From: an uncultured Chloroflexia bacterium
GTDB taxonomy: Bacteria; Chloroflexota; Ktedonobacteria; Ktedonobacterales; JADMIN01
Direction: 5' to 3'
Length of the DNA: 32,000 bases
Assembly: GCA_963718915.1 (NCBI GenBank)
Contig: CAVRAI010000015.1
Span: 600,001 to 632,000, forward strand
Both the position numbers and the translations under genes were made by a program. Position 1 is the first letter of the stretch; each line of letters opens with the position of its first letter. The notes beneath the pieces were generated by a model. The model saw only the letters and a program-made list of their open reading frames with translations. It did no database searches and was not told the DNA's origin. Shown in pieces: positions 1,006 through 25,661 of this stretch.

Positions 1006-2121
1006 CTAGCGGTAGACGAAGACCAGCAACGTCTGGCCCACCTGGATCTTGTCGCCGTCCTCCAGCATGTGCTCGGAGACGCGCTGGCCATTGACGAGCG
1101 TGCCGTTCGCGCTCTGCTCGTCACGCAGCAGATAGCGGCCATTCTGCTGCCGGTTGATCGTCGTGTGGGTGCGCGAGACGGCCAGGTCTTCGAGGAAGAC
1201 ATCGCTCTCGCGGCTGCGCCCGATGGTGATGCGGTCTTTGCGCACGTCGTAGGAGCGGCCCTGTTCTTTGCCTTCCTGCACGACCAGTTTCGGCTCGCCC
1301 TGCCCCGTCTGTGGCCGCACGACATAGGTGCGCTGGTCCTCGGTGTAGGCGCCATTGCCATAGCCCTGCTGACCGCTGTACGCGCCAGCTGGAGCAGCGG
1401 CGCCCCAATCCTGACTGGGAGCAGTCGGGCTGGCGGGCGGATTGTTCCAGTTGGGGGCGCCCTGCGGCGCGGGCTGATCCCAGGCCTGTTGTGGCGCGGG
1501 CTGCTGGTTCCACCCCTGTTGCGGGTCTGGTGGACGTTGATTCCAGTCGCTGCCCGCGGCGGGAGCGCCCCCGCCCCACCCGGCAGGCGCCGGTGCGGCT
1601 GGCTGACCGCTCCATTGTGGCTGCTGGCCCATACTATCTGGCGGGCCGCCCCACTGGGGAACGGTACCCTGCTGCTCGCCCCATCCCTGGCCTGATGGTG
1701 GTCCCCATCCGCCTGGAGCGCTACCACGTCCAGCGTTCGCCGCGGCTGGCGCGCCCTGATTCCCGTAGGATGCCCAGTCGCTAGAGGCGGCCGGTCCGGC
1801 ATTCGGACGGCTCGCGGGGCCACTGTAGTCCTCGCCCCAGCCGCCGCCTGGACGCGAACGGCCGGGCTGGCTCACAGGCGCGCGCGACTGGCCGTATGGC
1901 CCCTGATTCGCATCGTAGCCAATGCCGCGCGATGTCTTTTTCGCGTCACCATTGCTGCGCAGCACCATCACGAACACCAGAAGGATCGCGATGATGACGA
2001 CCAGTCCGCCAATGGCCACGAGGACGGGGCCTCCCAGTCCACCGGCGGCAACCACTGGTAGTATGGCGGATTCAAGTGTCAGATTCATAATGCCTAATCC
2101 CTTCGCCCAGCCGCTCTCCAA
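1006..2121 (-). CDS. Membrane-anchored FHA-domain protein with a long W/Q/G/P-rich low-complexity linker
   Basis: 371-aa ORF. The N-terminal hydrophobic helix is PVLVAIGGLVVIIAILLVFVMVL. The C-terminal FHA signature is ITIGRSRESDVFLEDLAVSRTHTTINRQQNGRYLLRDEQSANGTLVNGQRV. It starts 5 nt after the upstream kinase stop. Confidence 0.85.
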   Translation of the reverse strand: MESGWAKGLGIMNLTLESAILPVVAAGGLGGPVLVAIGGLVVIIAILLVFVMVLRSNGDAKKTSRGIGYDANQGPYGQSRAPVSQPGRSRPGGGWGEDYSGPASRPNAGPAASSDWASYGNQGAPAAANAGRGSAPGGWGPPSGQGWGEQQGTVPQWGGPPDSMGQQPQWSGQPAAPAPAGWGGGAPAAGSDWNQRPPDPQQGWNQQPAPQQAWDQPAPQGAPNWNNPPASPTAPSQDWGAAAPAGAYSGQQGYGNGAYTEDQRTYVVRPQTGQGEPKLVVQEGKEQGRSYDVRKDRITIGRSRESDVFLEDLAVSRTHTTINRQQNGRYLLRDEQSANGTLVNGQRVSEHMLEDGDKIQVGQTLLVFVYR

Positions 2122-2126
2122 AAACG

Positions 2127-3299
2127 TCAGCGGGTGCGTACCTCGAAGCGGAGTTCTACGTTGCCAAGCCGCATCATATCACCGGAATGCACTTCAACTT
2201 CCTGATACGGGACTAGCGGCTCGTTGTTCAGACGCGTTCGGTTGAACGCCTTAAGATCCTCCAGATAGAACTTCCCCTGACGGAAACTCATGCGCGCATG
2301 CTGACGCGAGACCGTTTGTTGCGGATCAAGCGGCAGCAGGTCAATATCGGGTCGCGTGTTCCGTTGCGGATCGCTCCGCCCAAGCACCATCTCGGGCGCC
2401 GTCAGCATAAACGTCTGGCCGTTTCCGGCAATCATCACGCCGAGCGCTGGCTCGGTGGATGGCGCGGTGGTTCCACGCTCTGGAATCGGCATCGCTTCGA
2501 TGGCGTCGAGAAAGGCGCGCGGCGACTGAAAACGTTCTGCGGGCTTCTTCGCCAGGGCCCGCAGAAAGAATACGTCATACTCCGCTGGCAGTTCTGGTCG
2601 CAAGGCGCGTGCCGATGGTGGCGGATTGTTGAGGTGTTGCATGACGACATCCCAAGCATGCTCCCCATCGAAGGGGACGCGCCCGGTCAGCATCTCGAAA
2701 AAGACGCAGGCCAGCGAATAGAGATCAGCGCGCGTATCGGCCCGGCGGCTGTTTTCCACCTGCTCGGGGGCGACGTAGAACGGCGTGCCGACGAAGAAGC
2801 CGGTGACGGTGATATCGCGCGATTCATTGCTCCGCGCCAGACCGAAGTCGGTCAGCTTCACCACACCGTTCACACTCAACAAGAGGTTCTGTGGTTTGAT
2901 ATCGCGATGGACGATGCCCTGTTCCGCGGCGGTCACCAGCCCGGCGGCGGATTGCTCGACCACGTCGATGGCGCGCCGCACCGGGAAGGGACCGTTCGTC
3001 AGGATGGCATGCTTGAGATTATGCCCATCCACGTAGTCCATGACGATAAAGAGGCTGCCGCGATCTTCACCAGAATCTACCGGACTGACGACATGTGGCC
3101 CCGAGAGCCGCTTGAGCAGTTCGAATTCGCGCTGGAAACGCTCGGCCAGCTCAGAATCCGCCGCTGCCTCACGGCTGAGTACCTTGACCGCATAGAGACG
3201 GTTTGATTCGAGATCTCTCCCGATATAGACCGTCGCCATACTGCCACGGCCGCGCTCATCAATGAGCTTATAGCGATTTTTGAGAACTCGTCCGAGCAT
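2127..3299 (-). CDS. Ser/Thr protein kinase with a C-terminal FHA domain
   Basis: 390-aa ORF. Kinase motifs: GRGSMATVYIGRD, AVKVL, HRDIKPQNLLL, DFGLAR, APE. The C-terminus is FHA-like: MVLGRSDPQRNTRPDIDLLPLDPQQTVSRQHARMSFRQGKFYLEDLKAFNRTRLNNEPL. Confidence 0.9.
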   Translation of the reverse strand: MLGRVLKNRYKLIDERGRGSMATVYIGRDLESNRLYAVKVLSREAAADSELAERFQREFELLKRLSGPHVVSPVDSGEDRGSLFIVMDYVDGHNLKHAILTNGPFPVRRAIDVVEQSAAGLVTAAEQGIVHRDIKPQNLLLSVNGVVKLTDFGLARSNESRDITVTGFFVGTPFYVAPEQVENSRRADTRADLYSLACVFFEMLTGRVPFDGEHAWDVVMQHLNNPPPSARALRPELPAEYDVFFLRALAKKPAERFQSPRAFLDAIEAMPIPERGTTAPSTEPALGVMIAGNGQTFMLTAPEMVLGRSDPQRNTRPDIDLLPLDPQQTVSRQHARMSFRQGKFYLEDLKAFNRTRLNNEPLVPYQEVEVHSGDMMRLGNVELRFEVRTR

Positions 3300-11644: not shown

Positions 11645-12220
11645 ATGGATACACATGAGTCGCATTCGCTCTGGCAGGGGAAGCTGATACGGCTGCGGGC
11701 CATCGAGCCGGGCGACTGGGAGACGTACTTCGCCTGGAACTTCGACGACGAACAAACACGCCCGCTCTACTTCATCCCTCCCCCGCAGTCACGCGAGGCG
11801 GTGCGGCGCTGGGCCGAGCAGGAGTCTACGCGGCCAATCGGCGATGATAACATCCGCTTCACGATTGCCCGCCTTGAAGATGACGCAGTGGTGGGCGACA
11901 TGGGCGTGCATGAGGCTGACCCACGTGTCGGCACATTCAGTTATGGCATCAACATCAAGCGCGAGGAGCAGCGTAAGGGCTACGCGAGCGAGGCTATTCG
12001 GCTGTTGCTCCGCTACTACTTCCAGGAACGCCGCTACCAGAAAGTGACCATCAAGGTCTACAGCTTCAACGAGGCGTCAATGCGTCTCCACGAAAGCCTG
12101 GGTTTCCAACTTGAGGGCCGCCTGCGCCGCACGGTCTATACCGACGGTGGTTTCCACGATGAAGTGATGTATGGAATGACCGTCGAGGAGTTCCGCGAGA
12201 AGCATCTGCCCAAAATGTGA
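11645..12220 (+). CDS. GNAT family N-acetyltransferase (RimJ/RimL-like)
   Basis: LRAIEPGDWETYFAWNFDDE at the N-terminus, and the acetyl-CoA-binding block QRKGYASEAIRLLLRYYFQERRYQKVTIKVYSFNEASMRLHESLGFQLEGRLR. The track ORF starts with GTG at 11636; the ATG at 11645 fits the promoter better. Confidence 0.85.
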   Translation: MDTHESHSLWQGKLIRLRAIEPGDWETYFAWNFDDEQTRPLYFIPPPQSREAVRRWAEQESTRPIGDDNIRFTIARLEDDAVVGDMGVHEADPRVGTFSYGINIKREEQRKGYASEAIRLLLRYYFQERRYQKVTIKVYSFNEASMRLHESLGFQLEGRLRRTVYTDGGFHDEVMYGMTVEEFREKHLPKM

Positions 12221-12418
12221 TGCTACAGCAGTGGAGATATCAGCGGAATACTGCGCCAGTTCGCGATTCGCTTCGATAATCAATTCGACCGCCTCTTTGA
12301 GGTTCTCGCGAGCCTCGTCGAGGGTAGCGCCCTGCGTATTCGCGCCTGGCAGTTCTTCGACGTAGCCCACCCACCAGTCGCCATCCTGCTCAAAGATGGC
12401 TGTGAATGTTGCGGTCAT
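12077..12418 (-). CDS. HicB-family (UPF0150) antitoxin-like protein, probably 3-prime truncated and read through into antisense GNAT sequence
   Basis: The N-terminal 60 aa, MTATFTAIFEQDGDWWVGYVEELPGANTQGATLDEARENLKEAVELIIEANRELA, are a typical HicB fold. A strong SD GAAGGAGAGAGGG lies upstream. The last roughly 48 codons overlap the convergent GNAT gene (12077-12220) and look non-homologous. Confidence 0.55.
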   Translation of the reverse strand: MTATFTAIFEQDGDWWVGYVEELPGANTQGATLDEARENLKEAVELIIEANRELAQYSADISTAVASHFGQMLLAELLDGHSIHHFIVETTVGIDRAAQAALKLETQAFVETH

Positions 12419-12487
12419 AGCGTCCGCCCTCTCTCCTTCTCATGAGAGTTGAGAGAATAGGAATAGACTTCGATGAAACCAAGGGCG

Positions 12488-12697
12488 CTAGTGAGCGACT
12501 GGCTCTGCCTGTGGCTCTGGGATTGGCTGCCCACGTTCACGTGCGGTCTCAATCCACAGAGCGATGACTTCCTGCGCCATCGCAACCGCAGCTTCCGGCG
12601 TTTCGCCATCGGCCATCGCCCCGGGAAGGTCTGGTATATCGACAATCCATGCCTGATCTGGCTCGCTCCAATACAGGTACATCCGGTATTTATACAA
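12488..12697 (-). CDS. hicB: HicB-family antitoxin
   Basis: 69 aa: YLYWSEPDQAWIVDIPDLPGAMADGETPEAAVAMAQEVIALWIETARERGQPIPEP. The TTG start has SD AGGTGAGG 4 nt upstream, immediately after the hicA stop. Confidence 0.8.
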   Translation of the reverse strand: MYKYRMYLYWSEPDQAWIVDIPDLPGAMADGETPEAAVAMAQEVIALWIETARERGQPIPEPQAEPVAH

Positions 12698-12711
12698 GGC
12701 GCCTCACCTTT

Positions 12712-12960
12712 CTAGCGGCCATACGTTTGCAGCAATTCACGAATCTGCTTGACTTGATAGGGTTTCGCTTTCCCGCTCTTGCCGGGCTGAATGTTGATAT
12801 TCTCCGGGCGGCCAGTGTGAACAAAGATATGATGCGAGCCGTGTTGTCGCCACGCTTGATACCCTACATGCGGCAACATAGCGCATAGCTCTTGAAAGTC
12901 TATGTTCGCGTCTGCCCGTCCACTCATAACCCGCCGTAAGGTCTTTTCCCACTGCGCCAC
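12712..12960 (-). CDS. hicA: HicA-family mRNA interferase toxin
   Basis: 82 aa with WRQHGSHHIFVH and KPYQVKQIRELL, typical of HicA/YcfA. It has a GTG start with a GAGGAG SD, and the toxin-first gene order is typical of hicAB. Confidence 0.8.
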   Translation of the reverse strand: MAQWEKTLRRVMSGRADANIDFQELCAMLPHVGYQAWRQHGSHHIFVHTGRPENINIQPGKSGKAKPYQVKQIRELLQTYGR

Positions 12961-13926: not shown

Positions 13927-15378
13927 TCAATGGAAGAGTCGTGGGATGCGCTTCTTCCAGGCGGTCGGTAGGATGACGTCAATCGCGTCGTCCACCGTCA
14001 CGATGCCCAGCAGCGCGCCCTGGTCGTCCACCACTGGCAGCGCCAGCAGATCGTCGTCGGCGATGGTGTGCGCCACGACACGCTCGTTGTCCAGCGGATG
14101 CGCCATATGCTGCATCGGGTGCGCGATGTCGGCGATGCGCGCGTCGGGGTCCGCCAGCAGCAGGTCGCGTAGGGACACCATGCCCTCCAGCATACCCTCC
14201 GCCTCCAGCGAGATGCCGGGGTGAGGCGCGGCCACCGTTGGCGCTCCAGAAGTTCGGGGACGACCCTTTGCGCGCGCCTTCGCTCCGTTGTTCGTCCGAA
14301 CTGGCGCGGGCATATCGCCGCTGACAATGTAGATTTCCAACAGCCCTTCCGGCAGTGGATCATCCTGATCGTTGGCCGCCGCCTTCGCCCGCGCCCGCAG
14401 TGCCTCGATGACCTCCTCAACGGTGGCCCAATCGGGCACCGAGATGTAGTCAGTCGTCATGATGCCGCCCGCGCTGTCTTCCGGCCAGCCCAGCAGTTCC
14501 TGCACCTCACTCGCCTCCTCACGGTCCATGCGCTTGAGCAGTTCCTGCGCCTCCTCGGCGGTGATGCTTTGTAGGGCATCGGTCGCCTCGTCTGGCTCCA
14601 TCTCCTCCAGCAGATCGGCGGCGCGTTCGGGATCCATCGCCCGCAGAATCTGCCCCTGCTGCTCGTCTTCTAGCTCCTCCAGCGTGTCGGCGGCCTGCGC
14701 CTCGTCCAGATCATCCAGCAGTTTCGCGCCCTGTTGCGGTGTTAGTTGCTCCAGCAGCCGCGCCAGTTCCGCCGGGCGCATCACCTCGATCTTGGCGCGT
14801 GGCACCCGCAATCGCAACGTACCCTCACCCTCGTCCTCGTTGGCGACAGGCGCCACCTGTGACCAGTCGATCAGCGGCGCTTTGCGGGCGAAATCGCGCC
14901 CGAAGGCAGCCGTCACCGCCTGGCCGACACGCGCCCAGCCCATCCGGCGCAGCAGTGCGCTCGGGCCGATATCCACCGCGACCAGCCGCCATGTCTCGTC
15001 ACGACGGGACAGATCGAGGTCGTTGATACGCACAACACGTCGCCCCTCCAGGTCTACCACCTGGCGGTCGAAGAGGCCCTCTCGCAGCACCATCTCACCC
15101 TCGCGCCGCTGGAACCGACGCAGGTTCATTTGCTGAGTTGCCAGCTCCGCGCCCTCCGGAGTGAGGCTTCTCACCTCATCCAGGGGGATGAAGATGTCGC
15201 GCGAGCCGCGTGGCCCCTTGACCCGCGCCACCAATCCAACAACTGGTGGATAGATATCCATAGGGTTTGCTGGCGTCTCGGTCTGGGGCAGACGTACCAC
15301 CAGATCATGCAGCGCCGCCACCGCCTCGCCGTTCGGGTCACGAATGGGTTTGCCGAGGAATTCTGTGAGTGCGGGCAT
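13927..15378 (-). CDS. Soluble PRC-barrel / MgtE N-terminal domain / CBS-pair protein (MgtE cytosolic module without the membrane pore)
   Basis: 483 aa. Acidic MgtE-N repeats: LDDLDEAQAADTLEELEDEQQGQILRAMDPERAADLLEEMEPDEATDAL. CBS-type segments follow: GGIMTTDYISVPDWATVEEVIEAL and LPVVDDQGALLGIVTVDDAIDVI. There is no hydrophobic TM segment. SD AAAGGAG lies upstream, 68 nt after the Nramp-like stop. Confidence 0.85.
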   Translation of the reverse strand: MPALTEFLGKPIRDPNGEAVAALHDLVVRLPQTETPANPMDIYPPVVGLVARVKGPRGSRDIFIPLDEVRSLTPEGAELATQQMNLRRFQRREGEMVLREGLFDRQVVDLEGRRVVRINDLDLSRRDETWRLVAVDIGPSALLRRMGWARVGQAVTAAFGRDFARKAPLIDWSQVAPVANEDEGEGTLRLRVPRAKIEVMRPAELARLLEQLTPQQGAKLLDDLDEAQAADTLEELEDEQQGQILRAMDPERAADLLEEMEPDEATDALQSITAEEAQELLKRMDREEASEVQELLGWPEDSAGGIMTTDYISVPDWATVEEVIEALRARAKAAANDQDDPLPEGLLEIYIVSGDMPAPVRTNNGAKARAKGRPRTSGAPTVAAPHPGISLEAEGMLEGMVSLRDLLLADPDARIADIAHPMQHMAHPLDNERVVAHTIADDDLLALPVVDDQGALLGIVTVDDAIDVILPTAWKKRIPRLFH

Positions 15379-15446
15379 TGGAACGCTCCTTTATCGGCAT
15401 ATCGGCACGAAATTCAGCGCGGGTCATCGTAGCGAAAAGTGTCTCG

Positions 15447-16823
15447 TCATTGCAGGAACGGAATGCCGACGGCAGGGAGCACGATGCTGAGAATCATGAT
15501 GAATGAGAGCACCGTCAACACGCTGGTAATGCCCCAGGCAATAGTGTTCTGAAGGACGCTGTTGACGTATTTGCCCATGATGCGCCGGTCGTTGACCAGT
15601 CGCAGAATAAAGACCAGCAGAATCGGCAGCAGCATGCCATTGATGATCTGCGCCACGACGATGAGCGGGATCAGCGGCAGGCCAGGGATGAGCGCGACGA
15701 CCGCGCCCAGGATAATCATGCCGGTAAAGAGGCCCTGAAAGATGGGCGCATCTTTGAACGAGTACGAGACACCGCGCTCGAAGCCAAACGATTCACAGAC
15801 CGAGTACGCCGTGGCCAGCGGTACAACCGCCGCCGCCAGCAGCGACGCGCCGAGCAGCCCAACCATAAAGAGGACTGGGGCAAAGCGGCCCAGGAATGGC
15901 ACGAGCGCCATCGCGGCCTGAGTGGCGTCGTTGATCTGCACCCCCGCGCCATGGCTGGCGGCGAAGACCGTCGCGCCGGTCGCGATGACGATGGACGCGA
16001 CGACGATACCCGCGAAGATCGATCCACCATAGGTTTCGAGCCGCTCAGCGGGATAGTCCTCCATCTGGATGCCCTTCTCGGCAACGCTGGACTGGATAAA
16101 GAGCTGCATATACGGTGTGATCGTCGTGCCGACCGCGCCGACGAGCAACTGAAAATAGGTGGCGTTGAGATAGACCGTGGGAACGAAAGTGTGGTGCAGC
16201 ACATCGCCCCAGTCGGGATGCGCCATGATAGCGGCGATAGGATAGGCAAAGAAGGCGAACGCCATGAACAGAAAGATTTTTTCAACACGCTCATACGAGC
16301 CGCGCGTGACAATCAGCCAGATACCTATGGCGGCCAACGGCACCGTAATGTATTTGGAGATACCAATGAGTTCGCATGCGGCGGCAATTCCAGCAAATTC
16401 GGAGATGGTGATAAGGACATTGGCGAAGAAGAGTGTTGACATCGCGAAGGCAGAGCCGCGCACGCCGAAACGCTCGCGAATCAGGTCGGAGAGGCCCTCG
16501 CCGGTAGCCGCGCCCATCCGCGCGCACATTTCCTGGACGACCGCCAGCGCAATCGTGACAAGTACCAGCGCCCAGAGCAGCCCAAAGCCGTAGCGCGCGC
16601 CTACGCTCGACCAGGTGGCGACGGCGCCCGCGTCATTACCCGCGTTGGCGGCGATCAGGCCGGGACCAAGAAAAGCGAGAAAGAAGAGTGGTTTGGGGAA
16701 GCGGCCAGAACGCCAGCGGCGCAGATAGGCCAGGGGACGGCGAAAGGTGACTTCAGCGGCGCGGCGCGCGAGAAGCGTACGCTGCGTCAGCACATCGGTT
16801 GGGGTTGGAATTGGCTGCTCCAC
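15447..16823 (-). CDS. Nramp-family transporter with a non-canonical metal-binding site (Nramp-related, possibly Mg2+-type)
   Basis: Aligns without gaps to the canonical MntH at 17910-19289, but TM1 reads AGNDAGAVAT (not DPGN) and TM6 reads GTTITPYMQ (not GATVMPH). The track ORF starts with GTG at 16859; GTG at 16823 has GGGAGG 6 nt upstream. Confidence 0.85.
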   Translation of the reverse strand: MEQPIPTPTDVLTQRTLLARRAAEVTFRRPLAYLRRWRSGRFPKPLFFLAFLGPGLIAANAGNDAGAVATWSSVGARYGFGLLWALVLVTIALAVVQEMCARMGAATGEGLSDLIRERFGVRGSAFAMSTLFFANVLITISEFAGIAAACELIGISKYITVPLAAIGIWLIVTRGSYERVEKIFLFMAFAFFAYPIAAIMAHPDWGDVLHHTFVPTVYLNATYFQLLVGAVGTTITPYMQLFIQSSVAEKGIQMEDYPAERLETYGGSIFAGIVVASIVIATGATVFAASHGAGVQINDATQAAMALVPFLGRFAPVLFMVGLLGASLLAAAVVPLATAYSVCESFGFERGVSYSFKDAPIFQGLFTGMIILGAVVALIPGLPLIPLIVVAQIINGMLLPILLVFILRLVNDRRIMGKYVNSVLQNTIAWGITSVLTVLSFIMILSIVLPAVGIPFLQ

Positions 16824-16859
16824 GAAGGGCCTCCCGCATAATGGTGTTATGGCCGACAC

Positions 16860-17165
16860 TTTCCAGGTCGGCCTGCGGAAGGGTGCGGAGCGCCCAAAAT
16901 CAGGCTGGCAAAGCTGGAACGCGACGGCAGGTTAGCGACACGAGTTGGCTACGACTACTTGAGCCAGCGTCCATCGAACATTGTCCTCCTCTCCGTACGT
17001 TGCACACGTTTCATATGCACGGTGTATGCCAGTGTATGCCAGGCGCATGCTCGTACGGGAGAAACACCCACGCCTCTGCGCCCCAGACTGGTGATGAAAT
17101 GACCAGGGGGAATCGATACAGAGTGCGGGTCGTGGCGACGCCTGTGAAACCCGATGGCGTCGCGG
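16860..17165 (-). promoter_or_regulatory. Structured roughly 300-nt leader between tRNA-Pro and the Nramp-like gene
   Basis: Elements on the minus strand:
- an 8-bp hairpin at 17135-17163
- the hairpin CCCCCTGGT...ACCAG..GGGG (about 17078-17108)
- the tandem decamer GGCATACAC(T/C) x2 (17021-17040)
- an 8-bp hairpin (17001-17020)
- a stem 17052-17062/16989-16999 overlapping a strong SD (GGAGAGGAGG) that precedes an 8-codon uORF (16955-16981)
No known riboswitch core was recognised. Confidence 0.35.
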
Positions 17166-17239
17166 TCGGGGTGGCCGGATTCGAACCGGCGACCTCATGG
17201 TCCCAAACCATGCGCGCTGACCAACTGCGCTACACCCCG
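17166..17239 (-). tRNA. tRNA-Pro (anticodon UGG)
   Basis: The reverse complement folds as a cloverleaf: CGGGGTG TA GCGC AGTTGGTCA GCGC G CATGG TTTGGGA CCATG AGGTC GCCGG TTCGAAT CCGGC CACCCCG A. It is 74 nt, has G37 and does not encode CCA. Confidence 0.92.
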
Positions 17240-17257
17240 CAAAAGCCGTACTAAAAT

Positions 17258-17287
17258 AGTATAGGCATGCTCGCCTGAAGGCGTCAA
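17258..17287 (-). promoter_or_regulatory. Sigma-70-type promoter for tRNA-Pro
   Basis: The minus strand reads TTGACG (17287-17282), an 18-nt spacer, then TATACT (17263-17258). The -10 ends 18 nt before the mature tRNA 5-prime end. Confidence 0.45.
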
Positions 17288-17369
17288 GCATCTGAACGTC
17301 CTATAGGCCGCATAGCTACGGCGCTCAGCCCGTGCCTACCAGACGTCGCCCAGCCTCATGACAGGAGGA

Positions 17370-17840
17370 TCACTTGAATGTCATGAGAACCGCGCCGTTG
17401 TCGCCTTCGAGGGTCAGGGTGGCGCTGTCGATGTGATAACTGTCCACACGGGAGAGCGCCTGCGTGTACGCGACTTCTCGCTCCATCACACCGGCTTCGT
17501 CGCAGAACTTCAGCGTGCCGCGAAAGTCCTCGAAGTGGATCTGATTGCCTGTAATTGAGTAGGAGCCACCATAGGCATTGCATCCGCTACTTCCGCTGAA
17601 CGAGCGATCCTGTGACTTCAAGCTCAACGTGATCGGGTTGGCGTCGGAAAGTGGCAGATCATGGCCATCGACGATCAGTTGGGTGAGCGTCCAGGTGTGG
17701 CTGGTCAGCGATGCGGGGGCAGATTGCGCCTGCTGGACGACGAGGACAATCACAGCCACAACCAGTGCGACAGCGACTGTTGCCGCGACGACGGTAATCT
17801 GACGCCTCACGATGGCCCCTCCTCTTGTGGTGAGCATCAA
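17370..17840 (-). CDS. META-domain (HslJ-like) protein with an N-terminal membrane anchor
   Basis: 156 aa. The anchor is ITVVAATVAVALVVAVIVLVV. The META pattern is SFSGSSGCNAYGGSYSITGNQIHF...TLKFCDE...REVAYTQAL. Confidence 0.8.
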   Translation of the reverse strand: MMLTTRGGAIVRRQITVVAATVAVALVVAVIVLVVQQAQSAPASLTSHTWTLTQLIVDGHDLPLSDANPITLSLKSQDRSFSGSSGCNAYGGSYSITGNQIHFEDFRGTLKFCDEAGVMEREVAYTQALSRVDSYHIDSATLTLEGDNGAVLMTFK

Positions 17841-17909: not shown

Positions 17910-19289
17910 CTACCGCAACAGGCCGATGCCGAGTGTCTGCCCAATCAGCAGGATATTCAGCCCCAGAATGATCGTCGCGACGACCCAGCCAGCGATCATT
18001 GTTATCCGCCGGTTGACCAGCCCACCCATGATGCCGCGCCGACTGGTGAAGATCAACAGCGGCACGATGGCGAACGGTAGGACGAAGCTCAACACCACCT
18101 GGCTAATCACCAGCGTCTGGTCGGGATTCACGTTGAGCGCGATGAAGACCAGCGCGGGCAGCATCGTCAGCCCACGGCGCAGCCAGGTGGGAATCTTCCA
18201 GCCGAGAAAGCCCTCCATGATAATCTGGCCTGCCAGCGTGCCCACCGCCGACGACGAGAGGCCGGAGGCCACCAGCGCCACCCCAAAGATGATGGACGAG
18301 GCATTGCCGAGCAACGGTCGCAGTGTATGGAACGCGGTCTCCAGAGAGCCGATCTCGTTATGGCCGCTGCCAAAGAAGACCGATGCCGCCATGATGAGCA
18401 TCGCACCATTGACCAGCCCGGCCAGCCCAAGCGCGATGATGATATCAAGCCGCTCGAAGCGCAGGATACGTTTCGCGTCCTGCTCGTCACGCGGCTTAAT
18501 GCGATTCTGTGTGAGCGCCGAGTGCAGGTAGACGACGTGCGGCATCACCGTCGCGCCGAGGATGCCCACAGCCAGCAGGATACTGCCTGCCCCGGCAAAT
18601 TGAGGCACAAACGCATGGTAGACGATCTGCCCGCCATTCGGTCGCGCCAGGAATGTCTCGATCAGATAGCTGATGGCGATAACCCCCAGCAGCGAGGCGA
18701 TGATGGCCTCCAGCGGGCGGAAACCCAGCCGCTGCAACGCCAGGATGGCGAAGGTGGTGACACCTGTCAGAACGCCCGCCGCCAGCAGCGGAATATGGAA
18801 GAGCAGATTGAAGCCGATGGCCGCGCCCAGGAATTCCGCCAGGTCGGTCGCCATCGCGCCGATCTCGGCAATCACCCAGAGGCCCATGCTCACAGGACGG
18901 GGCAGGTACTCGCGGCACAGTTCGGGAAGGTTCTTGCCGGTGGCGATACCCAGTTTGGCCGAGAGCATCTGCAGCAGGATGGCCATCAGGTTGCTGGCAA
19001 GGATCACCCAGAGCAACAGGTAGCCAAACTGCGCGCCCGCCTGAATATTGGTGGCAAAGTTGCCGGGATCGATATAGGCGATGGCGGCGATGAACGCCTG
19101 CCCCAGAAAAGGGAGAACACTGCGCAGACTGAAACGCTGCGGCGCGTCAAGCGACTTTTCAGCGGCCGCAACGGTGCGCGCGCTGCTAGAGGCGACTCTG
19201 CGATGCACATTGAGTGTTGAGCGGAGCCGATCCATCCACGAACGCCGTACAAAATCCATAGAACTATCCTCGCCCCCACCTGATATCAT
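17910..19289 (-). CDS. mntH: Nramp-family divalent metal (Mn2+/Fe2+) transporter MntH, canonical
   Basis: 459 aa with canonical AYIDPGNFATN (TM1) and GATVMPHVVYLHS (TM6). Its start overlaps the mntR stop (ATGA at 19286-19289). Confidence 0.9.
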   Translation of the reverse strand: MISGGGEDSSMDFVRRSWMDRLRSTLNVHRRVASSSARTVAAAEKSLDAPQRFSLRSVLPFLGQAFIAAIAYIDPGNFATNIQAGAQFGYLLLWVILASNLMAILLQMLSAKLGIATGKNLPELCREYLPRPVSMGLWVIAEIGAMATDLAEFLGAAIGFNLLFHIPLLAAGVLTGVTTFAILALQRLGFRPLEAIIASLLGVIAISYLIETFLARPNGGQIVYHAFVPQFAGAGSILLAVGILGATVMPHVVYLHSALTQNRIKPRDEQDAKRILRFERLDIIIALGLAGLVNGAMLIMAASVFFGSGHNEIGSLETAFHTLRPLLGNASSIIFGVALVASGLSSSAVGTLAGQIIMEGFLGWKIPTWLRRGLTMLPALVFIALNVNPDQTLVISQVVLSFVLPFAIVPLLIFTSRRGIMGGLVNRRITMIAGWVVATIILGLNILLIGQTLGIGLLR

Positions 19290-20011
19290 CTGGATGCCAC
19301 GACCACCTGCACGGCATCAACCAGTTCGCCGCCAACCGTCTGTTCAGCCGACGAGTCGGCGTCCTCGATGCGCAGCCGCAGCAGACCGCCAAATGGCGCG
19401 CGCTCCAGCAGTGTGACTCGCGCGCCTGGCAGCAGGCGCAGGGAAGCGAGGTAGCGCAACATATCAGAATTGTCATCGTTCACGCGCCGCACAATCGCCT
19501 GATCTCCCGGCTGGAGTGCCGAGAGCCGCTGCGTGTGCTGTGGGATGACTTCGCCGGTTTTACTTGGAATGGGATCGCCGTGTGGGTCTTCGGTGGGATG
19601 GCCCAGCAGGGCATCCACGCGATCCTCAAAGTGCTCGGAAATCACATGTTCGAGGCGTTCTGCCTCAGCGTCCACTTCATCCCAGCTATAGCCGAGATGG
19701 CGCACCAGATAGAGTTCGAGCAGCCGATGATGGCGCACCAGCTCCGCCGCCGCCGCCGCCCCTTTGGGTGTTAGCTCCACTCCGCGATAGGGCGTATGGT
19801 CGACATACCCCTGCTCGGCAAGCGACTTGAAGAGTTGTGTCACCGTCGCGTCGCTCAACTGCCCATCCGGCTCCTGCGCCTGAAGCCGCTCGCGCATGGC
19901 GGAGGTGGTCACCCGCTCGCCGCGTTCGCGCAGCTTGTAGATGTACTTGAGACAATCCACAGCGCGTTTCGGCAGTTTGCGTATATCTTCCGCAGTCGAC
20001 TCTTCGGTCAT
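19286..20011 (-). CDS. mntR: DtxR/MntR-family metal-dependent transcriptional repressor with a C-terminal FeoA/SH3-like domain
   Basis: 241 aa with HHRLLELYLVRHLGYSWDEVDAEAERLEHVISEHFEDRVDALLGHPTEDPHGDPIP. The block AERLEHV carries Glu where DtxR has Cys102 (ACRWEHV), a Mn-type feature. SD GGGAGGGAGGAG lies upstream. Confidence 0.9.
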   Translation of the reverse strand: MTEESTAEDIRKLPKRAVDCLKYIYKLRERGERVTTSAMRERLQAQEPDGQLSDATVTQLFKSLAEQGYVDHTPYRGVELTPKGAAAAAELVRHHRLLELYLVRHLGYSWDEVDAEAERLEHVISEHFEDRVDALLGHPTEDPHGDPIPSKTGEVIPQHTQRLSALQPGDQAIVRRVNDDNSDMLRYLASLRLLPGARVTLLERAPFGGLLRLRIEDADSSAEQTVGGELVDAVQVVVASR

Positions 20012-20197: not shown

Positions 20198-20863
20198 TCA
20201 ACTGCCACAGGGCGGGGTTGGGTTGACAACAGTACCGGGCTTGAAGGATGCCAGCATCTCCTGCCAGATACCCATATAGCGTTCAGTAATATTGCTGGAA
20301 TCGCCATGCGTCGCGGGGAGAAGTTTAATGCCGACCACGATACCATTCGAGACAAATGAGACACTGATACTCGGGAGTCCTACTGTGCCTTGAGGTGTAG
20401 AACCGAGGACAAGGTTGTTGGATTGATATCCTTTGATTCCCGGTCCGACAGTAACAATCATGGCGCCAGGAATCGCCTGCGGACACTGATTGGCTGCGTA
20501 GCCGCTAGTAGCGCCACCGAATTCAACGTCGAGTCCATTTGACGGATTGGAGTCAGCATCAGACCATGTTACAGAGTCGCCCACGAACCCCGGTGGTTGA
20601 GGATTTGGGTTGAGGTACTGAGCATCAGCGGGAATCGCAAAGGTAAACCCGAACATGCTATCGGTGACTCGTTGATAGGCTTTGCCGTCCACGAAAAAAG
20701 GCGTCGCGGTTGGCGATGCTGTCGCGGTCGGTTGGGATGTTGGGGTTGGTGTCGGAGCAGCCGCAACAGACGTGCTGGGTGTACTTTGGCCACAGCCCAC
20801 CAGCAGGCTCACGAGTAGCGCCAACCCTGTCAGCAGCCCGACTAGATGGCGGTTTCGATGCAT
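20198..20863 (-). CDS. Hypothetical lipoprotein (paralog 1)
   Basis: 221 aa. Lipobox LLVSLLVGCGQ, then a T/P/A-rich linker, a conserved core VTDSMFGFTFAIPAD and the C-terminus ERYMGIWQEMLASFKPGTVVNPTPPCGS. Confidence 0.75.
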   Translation of the reverse strand: MHRNRHLVGLLTGLALLVSLLVGCGQSTPSTSVAAAPTPTPTSQPTATASPTATPFFVDGKAYQRVTDSMFGFTFAIPADAQYLNPNPQPPGFVGDSVTWSDADSNPSNGLDVEFGGATSGYAANQCPQAIPGAMIVTVGPGIKGYQSNNLVLGSTPQGTVGLPSISVSFVSNGIVVGIKLLPATHGDSSNITERYMGIWQEMLASFKPGTVVNPTPPCGS

Positions 20864-20893: not shown

Positions 20894-21547
20894 TCAACTG
20901 TCGCAGATGGGAGTTGGATTGGTGAAGGTACCGGGTTGGAACGACGCCAGCATCTCCTGCCAGATGCCACCATACCGCTCCGTCAAGTTCCCCTGTGTCT
21001 GTGGTGTGAGCGTAATGAAGATAACATTGCCATTGGAGACAAACGATACACTGATTTCTGGTATTGCTGCTGCACCTTGTGGTGCTGATCCAATGACGAG
21101 GTCATCCTGCTCGTACCCAGTGATTCCTTTCCCAACAGAAACCTGTTTGGCGCCAGAAATTGACTGAGGGCATTGGTTAGCGGTATAACCAGTGGTCGCT
21201 CCACCAAAGTCGACGTTGAGCACCGTTGATGTTCCGGTATCGCGGTCGGACCACGTATTTGTATCACCCCCGACCTGTGGCTGAGGACTTATACTGAGCT
21301 GCCGAGTATCAGCAGGAATCGCGAAACTGAAACCGAACATACTATCGGTGACCAGCTTGTACGAGACGCCACCGACCGTGAACGGCGTCGCGGTTGGCTG
21401 TGTCGTCGCGGTAGCCTGAGTGAGCGGTGTTGTGGTGGCCGATGGTAACGAGCTGACATCTCCCACGCCACAGCCCGCGAGTAATATTAGCAACATCACT
21501 CCTATTGCCATCCCTGACACGCGGGAATAGCGGTTTTTGCGCATCAT
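20894..21547 (-). CDS. Hypothetical lipoprotein (paralog 2)
   Basis: Lipobox MLLILLAGCGVG, core VTDSMFGFSFAIPAD and C-terminus ERYGGIWQEMLASFQPGTFTNPTPICDS. The track ORF begins at 21604; the ATG at 21547/21544 follows SD AAGGAG (21556-21551). Confidence 0.75.
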   Translation of the reverse strand: MMRKNRYSRVSGMAIGVMLLILLAGCGVGDVSSLPSATTTPLTQATATTQPTATPFTVGGVSYKLVTDSMFGFSFAIPADTRQLSISPQPQVGGDTNTWSDRDTGTSTVLNVDFGGATTGYTANQCPQSISGAKQVSVGKGITGYEQDDLVIGSAPQGAAAIPEISVSFVSNGNVIFITLTPQTQGNLTERYGGIWQEMLASFQPGTFTNPTPICDS

Positions 21548-21973
21548 AGTCTCCTTCACATGTATGATCGAGCAAGGTATTAGGTTCTGGTCGCAGTTTT
21601 TCAAAACGCTAAAGCAATATGGCAGTAAGTACGATGCTCAGCAATAATACCTGACACATTTTGCGTTGGCAAGAGGGTTTATACGCAGATTCACCGTATG
21701 TATTTCAGGTCACTTGATTCGGGATGTTCCGGTCTCTACGCATGGGAAGAACGCTCCGTCGTGCTTCATCTCCCGCACGCATGCGCCACGAAGCGCCTCC
21801 CCTCGACGCTCGTATTGCGGGCGTGCTATCATGTGCCTGCATTTATAGCCTGATTCGCTGAGAGGGATTGCCTTCGTCTTTCAGACCAGTCCGCGCTATT
21901 TTTGCGTGGTAGGACACGTCTGCCGCCAGTAGGAAGGTCGTTCGCCATCGTGCCCATCTCGCCAGAATCCGCG

Positions 21974-22627
21974 ATGCCATCGGGGCCGCGCCGCCTGCTG
22001 CTCGCAACCACGAATCCCCATAAAATCGAAGAATTTCGCGCGATTCTTGCGGGGCTTCCCTACGGGTTGGTCAGCCCGAACGATATTGGACTGCCGCTGG
22101 AGGTTGAGGAAACTGGGGCGACCTTTGCCGAGAATGCGATGCTGAAGGCGACCGCCTGGGCCGATGCGGCTGACATGCTGACACTTGCGGAGGACTCAGG
22201 GCTGGAGATCGACGCGCTCGACGGCGAGCCGGGCATCTATTCTGCCCGCTGGGCTGGAGAAGATGTTTCCTACGAGGAACGGTTTCGCATCCTGCTGGGG
22301 CGGCTGGCTGATGTGCCTGCCGAGCGGCGCACCGCCCGCTACCGTGCCGCGATTGCGATAGCCCGGTCGGCGCCAGTGGGCGTGCTGGGATTGTTCGAGG
22401 GAACATTGGAGGGGCAGATTGCCTTTGCCCCAGCGGGCAGCGGTGGCTTTGGCTACGATCCCATCTTTTTCGTGCCAGAACAGCAGCGCACCGTAGGCCA
22501 GATGAGCGCAGAGGGCAAGCATCTGATCAGCCATCGGGCGCGGGCTGCCGCGGCGGCGCGCGAATTGCTGCAACAACTGGCGGAGACGTCCGCCAATGAA
22601 GCGCCGCAGCCAGACGAGGGAAACTGA
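21974..22627 (+). CDS. rdgB: Non-canonical purine NTP (dITP/XTP) pyrophosphatase RdgB/HAM1 family
   Basis: LLLATTNPHKIEEFRAIL, EETGATFAENAMLKA, DSGLEIDALDGEPGIYSARW, GGFGYDPIF and SHRARA are all typical of the family. The track ORF starts at 21902; the ATG at 21974 gives the usual N-terminus. Confidence 0.9.
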   Translation: MPSGPRRLLLATTNPHKIEEFRAILAGLPYGLVSPNDIGLPLEVEETGATFAENAMLKATAWADAADMLTLAEDSGLEIDALDGEPGIYSARWAGEDVSYEERFRILLGRLADVPAERRTARYRAAIAIARSAPVGVLGLFEGTLEGQIAFAPAGSGGFGYDPIFFVPEQQRTVGQMSAEGKHLISHRARAAAAARELLQQLAETSANEAPQPDEGN

Positions 22628-22688
22628 CGGGCACACGCGAACGTCACCGGCCAGCGCCGACGGGGCGCCTAGGAATGGAACGGAGAGA

Positions 22689-25661
22689 ATGGTGCGCTCT
22701 CAGCCAGTGCGAGTCGCCATTGACCTGGAAACGACCGGGTTGTACCACGAGCAGGATGTCATCATCGAGATCGGCGCGGTCAAATTCGCCGGAAGCGAGG
22801 TGATCGATACCTTCGCCTCGCTCGTCTCGATCAATATGTCATTGCCCTATCGTATTCAGCGGCTGACCGGCATTCGCCCGGATGAGCTGCGTTCCGCGCC
22901 CCCGCTCTCTTCGCTACATGGGCAACTGCGGACATTTCTGGGCGATGCGCCATTGGTGGGGCATAACGTTGGCTTCGACGTCGCGTTCCTCCAGAAGGTG
23001 GGGTTGGCCCGCCGCAATCCATTGATCGATACGTGGGAGCTGGCGTCGCTGCTGCTGCCGAACCAGCCGAACTACAGCCTGGGCGCCCTGGGTGAGGCGC
23101 TCGGCATCCCCGCTGATGTGCGCCACCGCGCGCTGGCCGACGCGCAACAGACCCGCGAGCTGTTTTTGCTCCTGCTGCAACGCATCGAGACCATCGAGGC
23201 GTCGCTAGCCCGCACCCTGCGCGACCTGCCCGCCGCTCCCGAGTGGACGCCGCGCTATTTCCTGCGTGGGGGAAATCAACGCCGGGAGCAGCCCGCGAAT
23301 GCCTTTGGTCGCGCGCTGACCGCATCGCTGGGAGACCAGTTCGCGCGCCAGTTAGGCGTTGATCCCGATGTCCTGGCGCTGGCGGTTGCCCAGGAAGCGC
23401 CACCCGCCGAATCCACAGCCGGTGAATCCACAGCAGGCGCCGAAGCGCCAGCGCCACCGGAAGCGCTCGCGCCCGCCGTAGACTCGCTAGCGCGGGAGAT
23501 GGTCGCCACGCTCGACGAAGGTGGCGCACTGCTGGTAGAGGCGGCGCCGAACGATCTCGATGCGGCGCTCGAGCCGATTGCGCGCTGGCTGGTCGCCCAC
23601 AAGGATGAGCGCATAATGGTGGCTGTCGCCACGCAGGAGCGGCTGGCGCAGGTGGCGCGTACAACGCTACCGGCGCTATTCCGGCGCATTGGGGTATCAC
23701 TGCCAATAGCCGAGGTGATGGGCCGTGACGACTATCTTTGCCTGCATCGTTGGTTCGGTCAAGCGCGGATCCCTGACGGCGAGAGCTTCTCGCGCGAGAT
23801 GACACGCGGGCTGGCCCGGCTGGCCGTCTGGCTCCAAACAACGCGAACGGGCGCGCGGGTGGATGTGGCACTTTCCGGCCCTGAGAACAGCGCGTGGGAC
23901 CGGGTGCGTGGCGGCGCTGAACACGTCGAGGCGATGGCTACGTGCAACTATCGCCGCGATGGCTACTGCTTCTTCGATCGAGCCCGCCAGACCGCACAGG
24001 ATGCGCGCGTGCTCGTCATCACGCATGATGCGCTGGTGGCGTACCTGGCCGGTGGCGATGACGACAGCCTGCCGGAGTGCAGGCGCGTTCTCGTGCTGGA
24101 TGCCCATGTCTTCGAGGAAAACGTACGCAAGGCGCGCGAGGTGATCCTGGACCAGCGCCGGATGAGCAGCGTACTTGACGATCTGGCGCGGGAGACGAAT
24201 GGCAAGCTCGGTGGCGGACTCTTGCGTCAGGCGGCGGGCCGTATCGAACATGCCAGCCTGCGCAACTGGTATGACCAGGTAGCCCAGGCCCGGCAAGCGA
24301 GCGAGCGCCTCTTTGTGGCGTTGCGACGGCTGCTGCAAGAGGTTCATGCGCATGGCAGCGGCGAACAGGGCCATGCCGAGCCGCAAGAGCAGCGGGTGCT
24401 CCGGCTGGATGCGCGCGCACGCCAGAACGATGCATGGGATGATGTGGCGGCGGCGTGGCGCACGACCGATGCCCGGCTGGCGGCGGTGGCGAAGGTCGCC
24501 AGTGAGACGGCTAGAGCGCTCTCCGGCGGGAAGAATAAGCAGGAGCCTGATAGCCTCGCCTCGGAGCTTGCCGCCGTGGCCTGGCGGCTGAACCAGATGC
24601 GCGATGACGGCGCCCGCCTGTTACTGGATGAGGGCGCCATCGAGCCGATGGTGGTCTGGTTGCGGCTGCCGTATCCACAAAACAATGACCGCGGCGATGC
24701 CGGTGGGCGTGGCAACCGCTGGAATGGACGCAAAGGGCCGCGCAAGTCGTCGGAAAACGGCGGCCAGTCTCAGGTCCAGAGCCAACAGGAAGCGCCCGCC
24801 GAGGTTCAGACTGAGGGCGTGTCGCCTGCTCCAGCGGAAGAAGTTGAGCCGACGCCGGAGCTACATGGCGAGCCGACTGATATCGGTCCGCTGCTGCAGC
24901 CGCTGAGCGCGCCGGGCCGGTCGCTGGCGCTCGCGGGATCGGCGCTGACTGTGGCGGGCGACTTCGAGACGATTCGTATAAGCCTTGGGCTGCCCGACGG
25001 CGTGCGTTTTCGCAGCCTCTCCAGTGATCGGAGCGCGCAGACGTTGCTCTGCCTGCCAGTGGATGTGCCGGAGCCAAACTCGCCACACTACCAGCAGCGG
25101 CTGAACGCGGCGCTGATTGGGCTGGCGTCGGCGCTTGAGGGGCGGCTAGTAGCGATCTTCTCTTCGCATGCCGCGCTGCGGAGCGCCTGGATGGGGATTC
25201 GCCGCGAACTGGAACAGAAGGACATTATGGTGCTGGCGCAGGGACAGGACGGTTCGGCGCGTCAGCTCTGGCGTACCTTCGAGACGGAGTCGCGGGTGGT
25301 GCTATTGGGCGCTGGCGCCTTCTGGGATGGCGCCGCTCGTACGGTGAATCCGCCTGCCTGCGTCGTGGTGACACGGATGCCGTTCCCGGCGCTGAGCGAT
25401 CCACCGGTGGCGGCGCGCGCCGAACGCTGGCCCGATCCGCAGAGCGGCTTTGTCGTGCCACAGGGGGCGCTCCGTCTGCGCCAGGCGCTCAATGGCCTCG
25501 CCTGGAGCCATCAGCGGCGTAACGCGGTTGTCCTCTTCGACCGCAGGATACAGACGCGCGGCTATGGCCCGGCGATTCTGGGAACGCTGCCACGCTGTGA
25601 GCAGTACGAGGAGTCGCTGGCGCAGATCACCGAACGCATCGCCGAGTGGGTGGGAGAATAG
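22689..25661 (+). CDS. dinG: DinG-like protein: intact N-terminal DnaQ/DEDDh 3-prime-5-prime exonuclease fused to an XPD/DinG helicase-like scaffold with degenerate ATPase motifs
   Basis: Exonuclease motifs: ExoI VAIDLETTGL, ExoII GHNVGFDVAFL, ExoIII HRALADAQQT. The helicase-like region reads LLVEAAPNDLDAALEP where the Walker A box is expected, VLVLDAHVFEEN where DEAH is expected and QALNGLAW where QxxGRxxR is expected. FWDGAA...VVVTRMPFPALSDP is conserved. The track ORF starts at 22596 and overlaps rdgB. Confidence 0.85.
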   Translation: MVRSQPVRVAIDLETTGLYHEQDVIIEIGAVKFAGSEVIDTFASLVSINMSLPYRIQRLTGIRPDELRSAPPLSSLHGQLRTFLGDAPLVGHNVGFDVAFLQKVGLARRNPLIDTWELASLLLPNQPNYSLGALGEALGIPADVRHRALADAQQTRELFLLLLQRIETIEASLARTLRDLPAAPEWTPRYFLRGGNQRREQPANAFGRALTASLGDQFARQLGVDPDVLALAVAQEAPPAESTAGESTAGAEAPAPPEALAPAVDSLAREMVATLDEGGALLVEAAPNDLDAALEPIARWLVAHKDERIMVAVATQERLAQVARTTLPALFRRIGVSLPIAEVMGRDDYLCLHRWFGQARIPDGESFSREMTRGLARLAVWLQTTRTGARVDVALSGPENSAWDRVRGGAEHVEAMATCNYRRDGYCFFDRARQTAQDARVLVITHDALVAYLAGGDDDSLPECRRVLVLDAHVFEENVRKAREVILDQRRMSSVLDDLARETNGKLGGGLLRQAAGRIEHASLRNWYDQVAQARQASERLFVALRRLLQEVHAHGSGEQGHAEPQEQRVLRLDARARQNDAWDDVAAAWRTTDARLAAVAKVASETARALSGGKNKQEPDSLASELAAVAWRLNQMRDDGARLLLDEGAIEPMVVWLRLPYPQNNDRGDAGGRGNRWNGRKGPRKSSENGGQSQVQSQQEAPAEVQTEGVSPAPAEEVEPTPELHGEPTDIGPLLQPLSAPGRSLALAGSALTVAGDFETIRISLGLPDGVRFRSLSSDRSAQTLLCLPVDVPEPNSPHYQQRLNAALIGLASALEGRLVAIFSSHAALRSAWMGIRRELEQKDIMVLAQGQDGSARQLWRTFETESRVVLLGAGAFWDGAARTVNPPACVVVTRMPFPALSDPPVAARAERWPDPQSGFVVPQGALRLRQALNGLAWSHQRRNAVVLFDRRIQTRGYGPAILGTLPRCEQYEESLAQITERIAEWVGE

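Follow-up and report, generated by a model that had tools for sequence, protein, structure and literature searches.

The systems closest to the one considered here are the nrmT operons that Shin et al. (2014, PLoS Genet, PMC4072509) found by way of M-box riboswitches; according to that report a homologue of the cytoplasmic domain of MgtE lies next to most NrmT genes, and cytoplasmic feedback regulation or a chaperone function was proposed for this MgtE-like gene. Transporters of this kind, the Nramp-related Mg2+ transporters (NRMTs), are represented by EleNRMT of Eggerthella lenta, which carries Mg2+ and Mn2+, not Ca2+, is not H+-coupled, depends critically on T224 for Mg2+, and shows the NRMT site signature DxxG-TxxA/T in place of DxxN-A/CxxM (Ramanadane et al., 2022, eLife, PMC8806188); the MgtE-like protein is not discussed in that paper, and full-text literature searches found no work on it later than Shin et al. 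(2014). Here we describe such a pair in a 32,000-nucleotide stretch of DNA (hereafter the window, to which all coordinates refer) from an uncultured Chloroflexia bacterium of the order Ktedonobacterales (contig CAVRAI010000015.1, positions 600,001 to 632,000), a placement to which the names carried by the closest homologues also point. On its minus strand, an nrmT gene for an SLC11/Nramp transporter of the NRMT clade (15447..16823) is followed by a gene for a soluble, MgtE-like cytosolic protein of 483 amino acids (13927..15378), which we call the partner. The explanation that we prefer, with slightly better than even confidence, is that this nrmT operon encodes an NRMT carrier together with a cytosolic sensor, detached from an MgtE channel carrying a PRC barrel, that would regulate the carrier according to Mg2+.

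The locus has to be placed against the earlier report with some care. A sequence-only reading of the window had presented the combination of the two genes as uncharacterised, which does not hold, as Shin et al. (2014) had already published both the combination and the idea of a feedback sensor; its interpretation is nonetheless biologically reasonable. The window is therefore a lineage-variant member of an already known pair of NrmT and an MgtE-like fragment. The operons of Clostridium acetobutylicum (Ca_c0685) and A. capsulatum (Acp2976/Acp2977) contain the same two families, adjacent and on one strand, the proposed role of feedback sensor or chaperone is the same, and an M-box precedes many operons, including those of sister Ktedonobacterales. 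The window differs from them in that the transporter gene comes first, a reversed order seen in all 12 loci of the Ktedonobacterales type, in that it has no M-box, and in that its partner carries a lineage-specific disordered insertion of 40 amino acids. In the accessible parts of Shin et al. (2014) there is no mention of the PRC module, of an origin from PRC-MgtE channels, of the set of ligands, of a basic tail or of the reversed order; these are refinements and not a new kind of system.

The family assignments of both proteins are close to certain. At the metal site of the transporter, an Ala for a Gly is the sole literal deviation from the NRMT signature. The Pfam family Nramp (PF01566) matches the nrmT product with an E value of 1.1e-84 over profile positions 1-356 of 357, and 114 windows of 19 residues have a Kyte-Doolittle hydropathy of at least 1.6. 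Its best solved relative is EleNRMT (7qia; E 6.8e-113, 381 bits, 407 residues, 54-460), while the E values for canonical DraNramp (5e-25, 92 bits) and for NRAT, the aluminium transporter of plants (3e-10, 43 bits), are much weaker, so that the assignment to the NRMT clade made from the letters alone was borne out. The protein also stays far below the NCBIfam cut-off for MntH (138 against 430 bits). Numbered on a 470-residue version of the protein and mapped through the EleNRMT alignment, the metal site consists of D76, A79, T245 and T248. The alpha-6 signature TxxA/T is matched by GTTITPY, which supplies T245 and T248, whereas alpha-1 reads DAGA: the Asn is lost, but Ala stands where the consensus DxxG has Gly. 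This DAGA variant is a minority form found in 10 of the surveyed NRMTs, among them the M-box-regulated ones of loci L002 and L023. Both proton-pathway histidines of alpha-6b are replaced (Y250 and I255), and E154 in alpha-3 and Q404 in alpha-10 are kept. The nrmT product thus has in common with EleNRMT (7qia/7qic) the Asp of alpha-1, the Thr of alpha-6 (T224 corresponds to T245), the Gln of alpha-10 and the Glu of alpha-3, and both proteins have lost the Asn and Met ligands as well as the histidines of the proton pathway; the two differ in the site itself (DxxA-TxxT versus DxxG-TxxA) and in what has replaced the histidines (Tyr/Ile versus Trp/Asn).

The longest nrmT open reading frame (ORF) begins at GTG 16859 (15447-16859, minus strand, 470 amino acids) and contains the motifs AGNDAGAVAT and GTTITPYMQLFIQS in transmembrane segments 1 and 6, as had been claimed for it. 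The true start is most likely GTG 16823, giving 458 amino acids, because orthologues of 458-464 amino acids have an ATG at the aligned position and a GGGAGG stands upstream; this putative Shine-Dalgarno sequence (16830..16835, minus strand) lies 6 nucleotides before GTG 16823 and aligns with the starts of the orthologues.

Between the nrmT stop and the ATG of the partner at 15378 there are 68 nucleotides on the same strand, and an AAAGGAG Shine-Dalgarno sequence (15386..15392, minus strand) precedes this ATG by 7 nucleotides; gap, ribosome-binding site and 483-residue frame are all present as first described. Pfam finds MgtE_N in the partner at residues 200-301 (E 3e-26), followed by CBS domains, and the cytosolic domain of Thermus thermophilus MgtE (2yvy) matches with an E value of 8e-34 in two stretches, 191-332 and 391-472. 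From the Pfam matches and the 2yvy alignment, the acidic helical MgtE_N domain (residues 200-301, 30% Asp+Glu) is assigned to 14476..14781 and the CBS pair (residues 302-470) to 13969..14475, both on the minus strand. The match to 2yvy is split because an insertion of about 40 residues in the first CBS domain lies between the two stretches (residues 352-391; 14206..14325, minus strand). This low-complexity segment is rich in Ala, Pro, Arg and Gly, falls in columns that are gapped in more than 50% of 67 aligned partners, occurs only in Ktedonobacterales proteins, and is predicted to be disordered, with a predicted local distance difference test (pLDDT) below 50 at residues 357-385. The AlphaFold2 model of the partner has a mean pLDDT of 84, and its top Foldseek matches are MgtE cytosolic domains (5x9g, E 6e-17). 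No window of 19 residues reaches a Kyte-Doolittle hydropathy of 1.6 (the maximum is 1.59), and the Pfam scan of the partner finds no PF01769, the MgtE membrane domain; the description of the protein as an MgtE-N domain and a CBS pair without a hydrophobic segment was therefore sound.

The N-terminal module (residues 1-190; 14809..15378, minus strand) is predicted to be a tandem PRC barrel: modelled with AlphaFold2 it reaches a pLDDT of 85.5 and a predicted template modelling score (pTM) of 0.81, and its best Foldseek match is the tandem PRC barrel CdpB1/B2 (8qzo, E 5e-6). Pfam places PRC above its gathering score in 26 of 30 diverse members of the family, at about residues 7-70. In the window protein scanned alone there is no significant PRC match, the only one being below threshold and inside the CBS domain. 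The PRC-barrel-like N-terminus that the sequence-only reading had noticed thus stands for the family and for the predicted fold, and not for the Pfam scan of this particular protein.

When the N-terminal module was searched against 1.84 billion representative proteins, 1,271 relatives came up at E<=1e-3, and in the 150 hits listed of these the match begins in the first ~70 residues. Relatives of about 600 amino acids (e.g., P0425, P0445 and P0499) combine PRC, MgtE_N, CBS and PF01769 and are full-length PRC-MgtE channels; their domain order of PRC, MgtE_N and CBS is identical to that of the partner, which remains collinear with them up to the end of the second CBS domain, where the plug helix begins. 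The channels go on with an acidic plug and PF01769, whereas the window partner ends with a basic C-terminal tail of 13 residues, PTAWKKRIPRLFH (residues 471-483; 13930..13968, minus strand), delimited by the MgtE and PRC-MgtE alignments. The earlier characterisation of the partner as MgtE's complete cytosolic regulatory half, with the channel missing, is thus accurate. The soluble partner probably descends from this PRC-MgtE subfamily; a PRC barrel together with MgtE was not mentioned in the literature searched. Among the candidates scored, 5,404 proteins are partner homologues at E<=1e-5, and the 120 that were listed have 422-534 amino acids and only MgtE_N, CBS and PRC among their precomputed Pfam domains. 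More than 60 partner orthologues from different phyla stop at the same point with a conserved LPxxW(K/R)(K/R)RxPRxF tail. In public records, partner proteins are named 'magnesium transporter', 'CBS domain-containing protein' or 'sporulation protein YlmC with PRC-barrel domain'; since the partner has no membrane domain, the first of these labels is wrong, and it is routinely applied.

We asked how far the Mg2+-sensing residues of MgtE are retained in the partner. In T. thermophilus MgtE (TtMgtE), the regulatory sites are Mg2 (E258), Mg3 (D259), Mg4 (D91/D247), Mg5 (D226/D250), Mg6 (D95) and Mg7 (E59), and I260 is labelled plug (Maruyama et al., 2018, PMC5882242); E258 and D259 lie in this plug helix. 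These residues were mapped to the partner through the 2yvy alignment and their conservation was counted over the 67 partners. E59 corresponds to D231 (Asp/Glu in 64), D91 to D263 (Asp in 63), D95 to D267 (Asp in 65), D247 to D464 (Asp in 60) and D250 to D467 (Asp/Glu in 54), so that five of the six mapped ligand positions in the N domain and the CBS pair, belonging to sites Mg4-Mg7, are acidic in a large majority of partners; the sixth, D226, corresponds to D443, an Asp in the window that is mostly Asn elsewhere. The plug-helix pair is inverted in charge: E258 has become K475 (Lys/Arg in 50 partners) and D259 has become K476 (Lys/Arg in 47), both within the conserved basic tail. In MgtE, the Mg2 and Mg3 sites tie the plug helix to the channel's own membrane domain. 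Compared with the MgtE channel as known from 2yvy, 2yvx and 5x9g, the partner thus shares the N domain, the CBS pair and the acidic Mg4-Mg7 ligands, lacks the transmembrane domain (the five-helix PF01769 domain with the pore Asp), bears Lys-Lys, within its basic tail, where the channel has the acidic plug residues of Mg2 and Mg3, and has an additional N-terminal tandem PRC barrel. Inter-domain sites that are kept and a plug that is inverted would fit a sensor addressing a different membrane protein, and prove nothing of the kind.

The two genes travel together. On the transporter side the survey took in 80 NRMT loci from genomes of Chloroflexota, Clostridia, Solirubrobacterales, Acidobacteriota, Nitrospirota, Proteobacteria, a Methanocellaceae archaeon and others, a set obtained with the scan patterns VVQEMCAR and GTTITPYM and hence biased towards the TxxT/PY site subtype of the window. 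A same-strand gene for an MgtE_N+CBS protein without transmembrane segments lies beside 69 of these 80 loci, in many phyla and the one archaeon; all but two of the 69 pairs are within 280 nucleotides, and overlaps of 4 nucleotides are frequent. At one of the 80 (L076:1649-4412) the soluble partner is replaced by a true MgtE, which has five hydrophobic segments and stands directly downstream of the NRMT. At L068:1633-5596, partner genes flank the NRMT on both sides. On the partner side, 74 of 80 metagenomic partner loci had enough flanking DNA, and 68 of these have an adjacent NRMT gene on the same strand. Co-occurrence in related genomes, a survey of which the sequence-only reading had proposed, is accordingly observed in both directions and across phyla, including the archaeon. 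Across 112 pairs, the distance matrices of the NRMTs and their partners correlate with r = 0.69, against no more than 0.09 once the labels are shuffled; this is consistent with inheritance as a unit, although shared phylogeny alone contributes to such a value. The transporter-first order of the window and all 12 loci of the Ktedonobacterales type is replaced by a partner-first order in almost all others. Seeming natural fusions of the two proteins in L075, L115 and L145 were rejected as out-of-frame ORF extensions in GC-rich DNA.

The link to Mg2+ comes mainly from the relatives of the locus. Three sister Ktedonobacterales (L002:2488-2678, L004:2928-3097 and L023:5381-5550) have an M-box confirmed with Rfam (RF00380, 118-128 bits) upstream of the pair's first gene; their NRMTs are 67-72% identical to that of the window, whose TTITPY site and gene order they share. 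M-boxes also head Clostridial and other nrmT-partner operons, and an nhmmer profile places one at 19 of 160 loci. Within the Ktedonobacterales, M-box regulation of the operon is patchy. The second transporter of the window, to which Pfam likewise assigns Nramp, lies 1050 nucleotides from the nrmT ORF (17910-19289, minus strand) and is a canonical MntH, passing the NCBIfam model NF001923 with 567 bits against the cut-off of 430; as claimed, it carries AYIDPGNFAT in transmembrane segment 1 and GATVMPHVVYLHS in segment 6. A DtxR/MntR-family gene with a FeoA-like C-terminal domain (19286-20011) overlaps the mntH start by 4 nucleotides (19286-19289, ATGA), so that repressor and mntH appear to be translationally coupled in a single operon, and the notion of a canonical MntH with an MntR-type neighbour is upheld. 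The further statement that the two Nramps lie about 1 kb apart and align without gaps is right as to the distance and wrong as to the alignment, which has 27% identity and 39 gap positions in 399 columns and is ungapped only at transmembrane segments 1 and 6. With the canonical mntR-mntH pair covering Mn2+ uptake 1 kb away and M-boxes on the sister operons, we infer that Mg2+ and not Mn2+ is probably the physiological substrate of the window NRMT.

How the two proteins might work together can be outlined from their homologues. The NRMT would be a LeuT-fold SLC11 carrier whose enlarged site, lacking the Met and the Asn, would take up hydrated Mg2+ and also Mn2+, presumably without proton coupling, given the close homology to EleNRMT. 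At high cytosolic Mg2+, ions would link the partner's acidic N domain to its CBS pair, as they do in MgtE, and drive it into a compact state, in which the basic C-terminal helix, located where MgtE has its plug helix, might hold the carrier inactive; once Mg2+ falls, the sensor would relax and uptake would resume. That the pair acts together in Mg2+ homeostasis is very likely. Gating of the NRMT in trans by the partner, in a Mg2+-dependent manner, is the best available model, and we give it about an even chance; that the two proteins touch, in which direction regulation runs and what the window protein carries are all deduced in this model. Separately encoded cytosolic sensor subunits that gate a transporter are familiar from the K+ systems KtrAB and TrkAH, where a soluble subunit that senses a ligand governs the membrane subunit of the neighbouring gene. 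The analogy is functional only, as folds and ligands are unrelated.

A number of observations weigh against a Mg2+-sensing brake on the carrier. No interaction or regulation between an NRMT and a partner has ever been demonstrated. In Shin et al. (2014, PMC4072509), co-expression of the A. capsulatum partner gave no further Mg2+ rescue and the A. capsulatum NrmT rescued a Mn2+-uptake mutant, and CabNRMT and EleNRMT function without a partner (PMC4072509, PMC8806188). We regard the negative result of 2014 as weak evidence against gating, because rescue was scored under low Mg2+, a condition that would leave an inhibitory sensor inactive. The ligand equivalent to D226 is Asn in 41 of the 67 partners, and the window itself has no M-box, whether at the Rfam gathering score, in a permissive scan (E<=10) of 15300-17400 or with the ad-hoc nhmmer profile. 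Ten of the 80 NRMT loci have no partner within 6 kb (two of them are short contigs), and an NRMT is absent from six partner loci (L089, L091, L092, L122, L124 and L141) that offer at least 3 kb of DNA to either side. These NRMT-less genes of the partner family encode proteins of 411-457 amino acids without transmembrane segments; the three that were examined (L089, L124 and L141) have unrelated neighbours such as SLT transglycosylase, Ser/Thr kinase, OpgC and GreA, and the genes may be orphan sensors or have a target encoded elsewhere. Finally, no NRMT column separated the 119 partner-associated from the 8 partner-less transporters when conservation of at least 80% was required on one side and of no more than 25% on the other, and the comparison yielded no candidate interface.

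The main rivals to gating are a role of the partner as buffer, chaperone or assembly factor and a function centred on Mn2+. That the partner is a cytosolic Mg2+ buffer or chaperone, or serves the assembly or stability of the transporter without gating it, would accord with the chaperone activity offered by Shin et al. (2014), with clade transporters that are active alone, and with the general use of PRC barrels as protein-protein interaction modules, the closest fold here being the CdpB1/B2 heterodimer. It is nevertheless rather unlikely in our estimate, as the whole sensing apparatus of MgtE (N domain, CBS pair and ligands) is kept, the sole known role of which is Mg2+-dependent gating, and a buffer would have no need of a conserved basic tail in the place of the plug helix. 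Somewhat less probable still is that the pair serves primarily for uptake of Mn2+, or of mixed transition metals, with the MgtE-like protein sensing or chaperoning Mn2+. The A. capsulatum NrmT, which has an MgtE-like neighbour and no riboswitch, rescued the Mn2+-uptake mutant and Mg2+ deficiency only weakly (Shin et al., 2014), EleNRMT carries Mn2+ as well as Mg2+, and the lack of an M-box in the window would suit this alternative. The M-boxes at the head of orthologous TTITPY operons in three sister Ktedonobacterales genomes, the canonical mntR-mntH operon 1 kb away, the absence of the soft Met ligand from the NRMT and the MgtE-type Mg2+ ligands kept in the partner all speak for Mg2+ instead.

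A different target for the partner, such as gene expression or another transporter, with synteny reflecting mere co-regulation under Mg2+ stress, could be read out of the six partner loci without an NRMT and the unrelated neighbours of those examined, and CBS-pair proteins do include transcription regulators, to which weak NCBIfam matches point. Same-strand adjacency in 92% and 86% of cases in the two directions, across many phyla and with frequent overlaps of start and stop, makes this quite improbable, and Pfam finds no DNA-binding domain in the partner. There is next to no room for the idea that the 483-residue frame is what decay or a frameshift has left of an MgtE, mutation or an error of assembly having removed the membrane domain, even if public annotation often reads 'magnesium transporter'. 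The homologues number in the thousands, more than 60 orthologues share end point and tail, and no frame of the window encodes an MgtE membrane domain (tblastn with three PRC-MgtE transmembrane domains, best E 0.12); we therefore rejected this candidate, and the frameshifted transmembrane domain that had been named as a possible objection is not there.

In the absence of an M-box, the leader of nrmT deserves a description of its own. It spans 340 nucleotides (16824-17163) between nrmT and a gene for tRNA-Pro(UGG) (17164..17239, minus strand), which lies directly upstream and is mentioned as context only; a sigma-70-like promoter (17287-17258) accompanies this tRNA gene, which is found in the same place in L001, L003, L006, L007 and L082 and not in L008, L022 and L081. 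Within the leader, a block of 22 nucleotides, ATGGACGCTGGYTCAAGTAGTC (16974-16953, minus strand), is invariant at 21 of 22 positions among nine Ktedonobacterales leaders, against 35 invariant positions of 209 in the rest of the alignment. The block opens a candidate upstream open reading frame (uORF) of 24-30 codons, MDAGSSS(R/Q)..., behind a GGAGG; in the window the uORF has 24 codons (16900..16974, minus strand; MDAGSSSRSQLVSLTCRRVPALPA, its first 22 nucleotides being ATGGACGCTGGCTCAAGTAGTC). The uORFs end at, or a few nucleotides past, an invariant GCCTGA, and no substitution occurs in their rare Ser codons TCA-AGT-AGT. All nine loci with the block are without an M-box, and all three M-box loci (L002, L004 and L023) are without the block. 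Taken together, this looks like a leader device that has replaced the M-box, possibly a leader peptide or an RNA switch; no description of it was found in the literature.

In five of these relatives (L003, L006, L007, L008 and L082), a predicted helix pairs an anti-Shine-Dalgarno segment, at about -66 to -73 nucleotides from the nrmT start, with the Shine-Dalgarno sequence and start codon, with energies of -25 to -34 kcal/mol and z scores of -3.2 to -6.0; the sequences differ between subgroups with compensatory differences. The helix is marginal in L022 (-16.5 kcal/mol, z -1.7), and in the window (16835-16900) and its two closest relatives, L081 and L001, the pairing is no better than chance (z -0.6 to +0.6). 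Likewise, the whole-leader fold of the window, with a minimum free energy of -71.6 kcal/mol and z = -1.6, is not distinguishable from that of shuffled sequence. A wider proposal, in which the PRC-MgtE gating module has been re-used as a diffusible Mg2+-sensing subunit that docks on the NRMT by its basic helix and, in addition, the M-box has given way to a device made of the 22-nucleotide block, the uORF and a helix that sequesters the Shine-Dalgarno sequence, is put forward tentatively, and we would not bet on all of it. The M-box-less leader of this sub-lineage, with its block and uORF, is the most novel by-product of the analysis and lies outside its main finding.

Other features of the window were recorded in passing. 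Two tandem paralogous ORFs on the minus strand (20198-20863 and 20894-21604; 221 and 236 amino acids) have lipoprotein-like N-termini, Thr/Pro-rich linkers and no Pfam match. A HicA toxin ORF (12712-12960, minus strand) adjoins a HicB-like ORF (12488-12697, judged by eye), after which comes a second antitoxin-like ORF (12077-12418); the GC content of 12077-12960, at 0.50-0.55, is below that of the surroundings. At 1006-3299 (minus strand), a gene for an FHA-domain protein adjoins one for a Ser/Thr protein kinase that has an FHA domain at its C-terminus, and 22596-25661 encodes a DinG-like fusion of 1021 amino acids between an RNase T-like exonuclease and a helicase C-terminal domain.

The question of what the partner does has been in print since 2014 and was not opened by this window. 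The present analysis sharpens it, in that the partner is recognised as a truncated PRC-MgtE with its inter-domain Mg2+ sites retained, the conserved basic tail in place of the acidic plug offers a concrete candidate interface, and more than 100 paired orthologues (112 pairs) are at hand for modelling of the complex. NRMTs move an abundant cation without proton coupling, and a brake against overload therefore seems necessary, although no protein is known to provide one. Should the partner be this brake, then a sensor domain would have passed from one transporter architecture to another, unrelated one.

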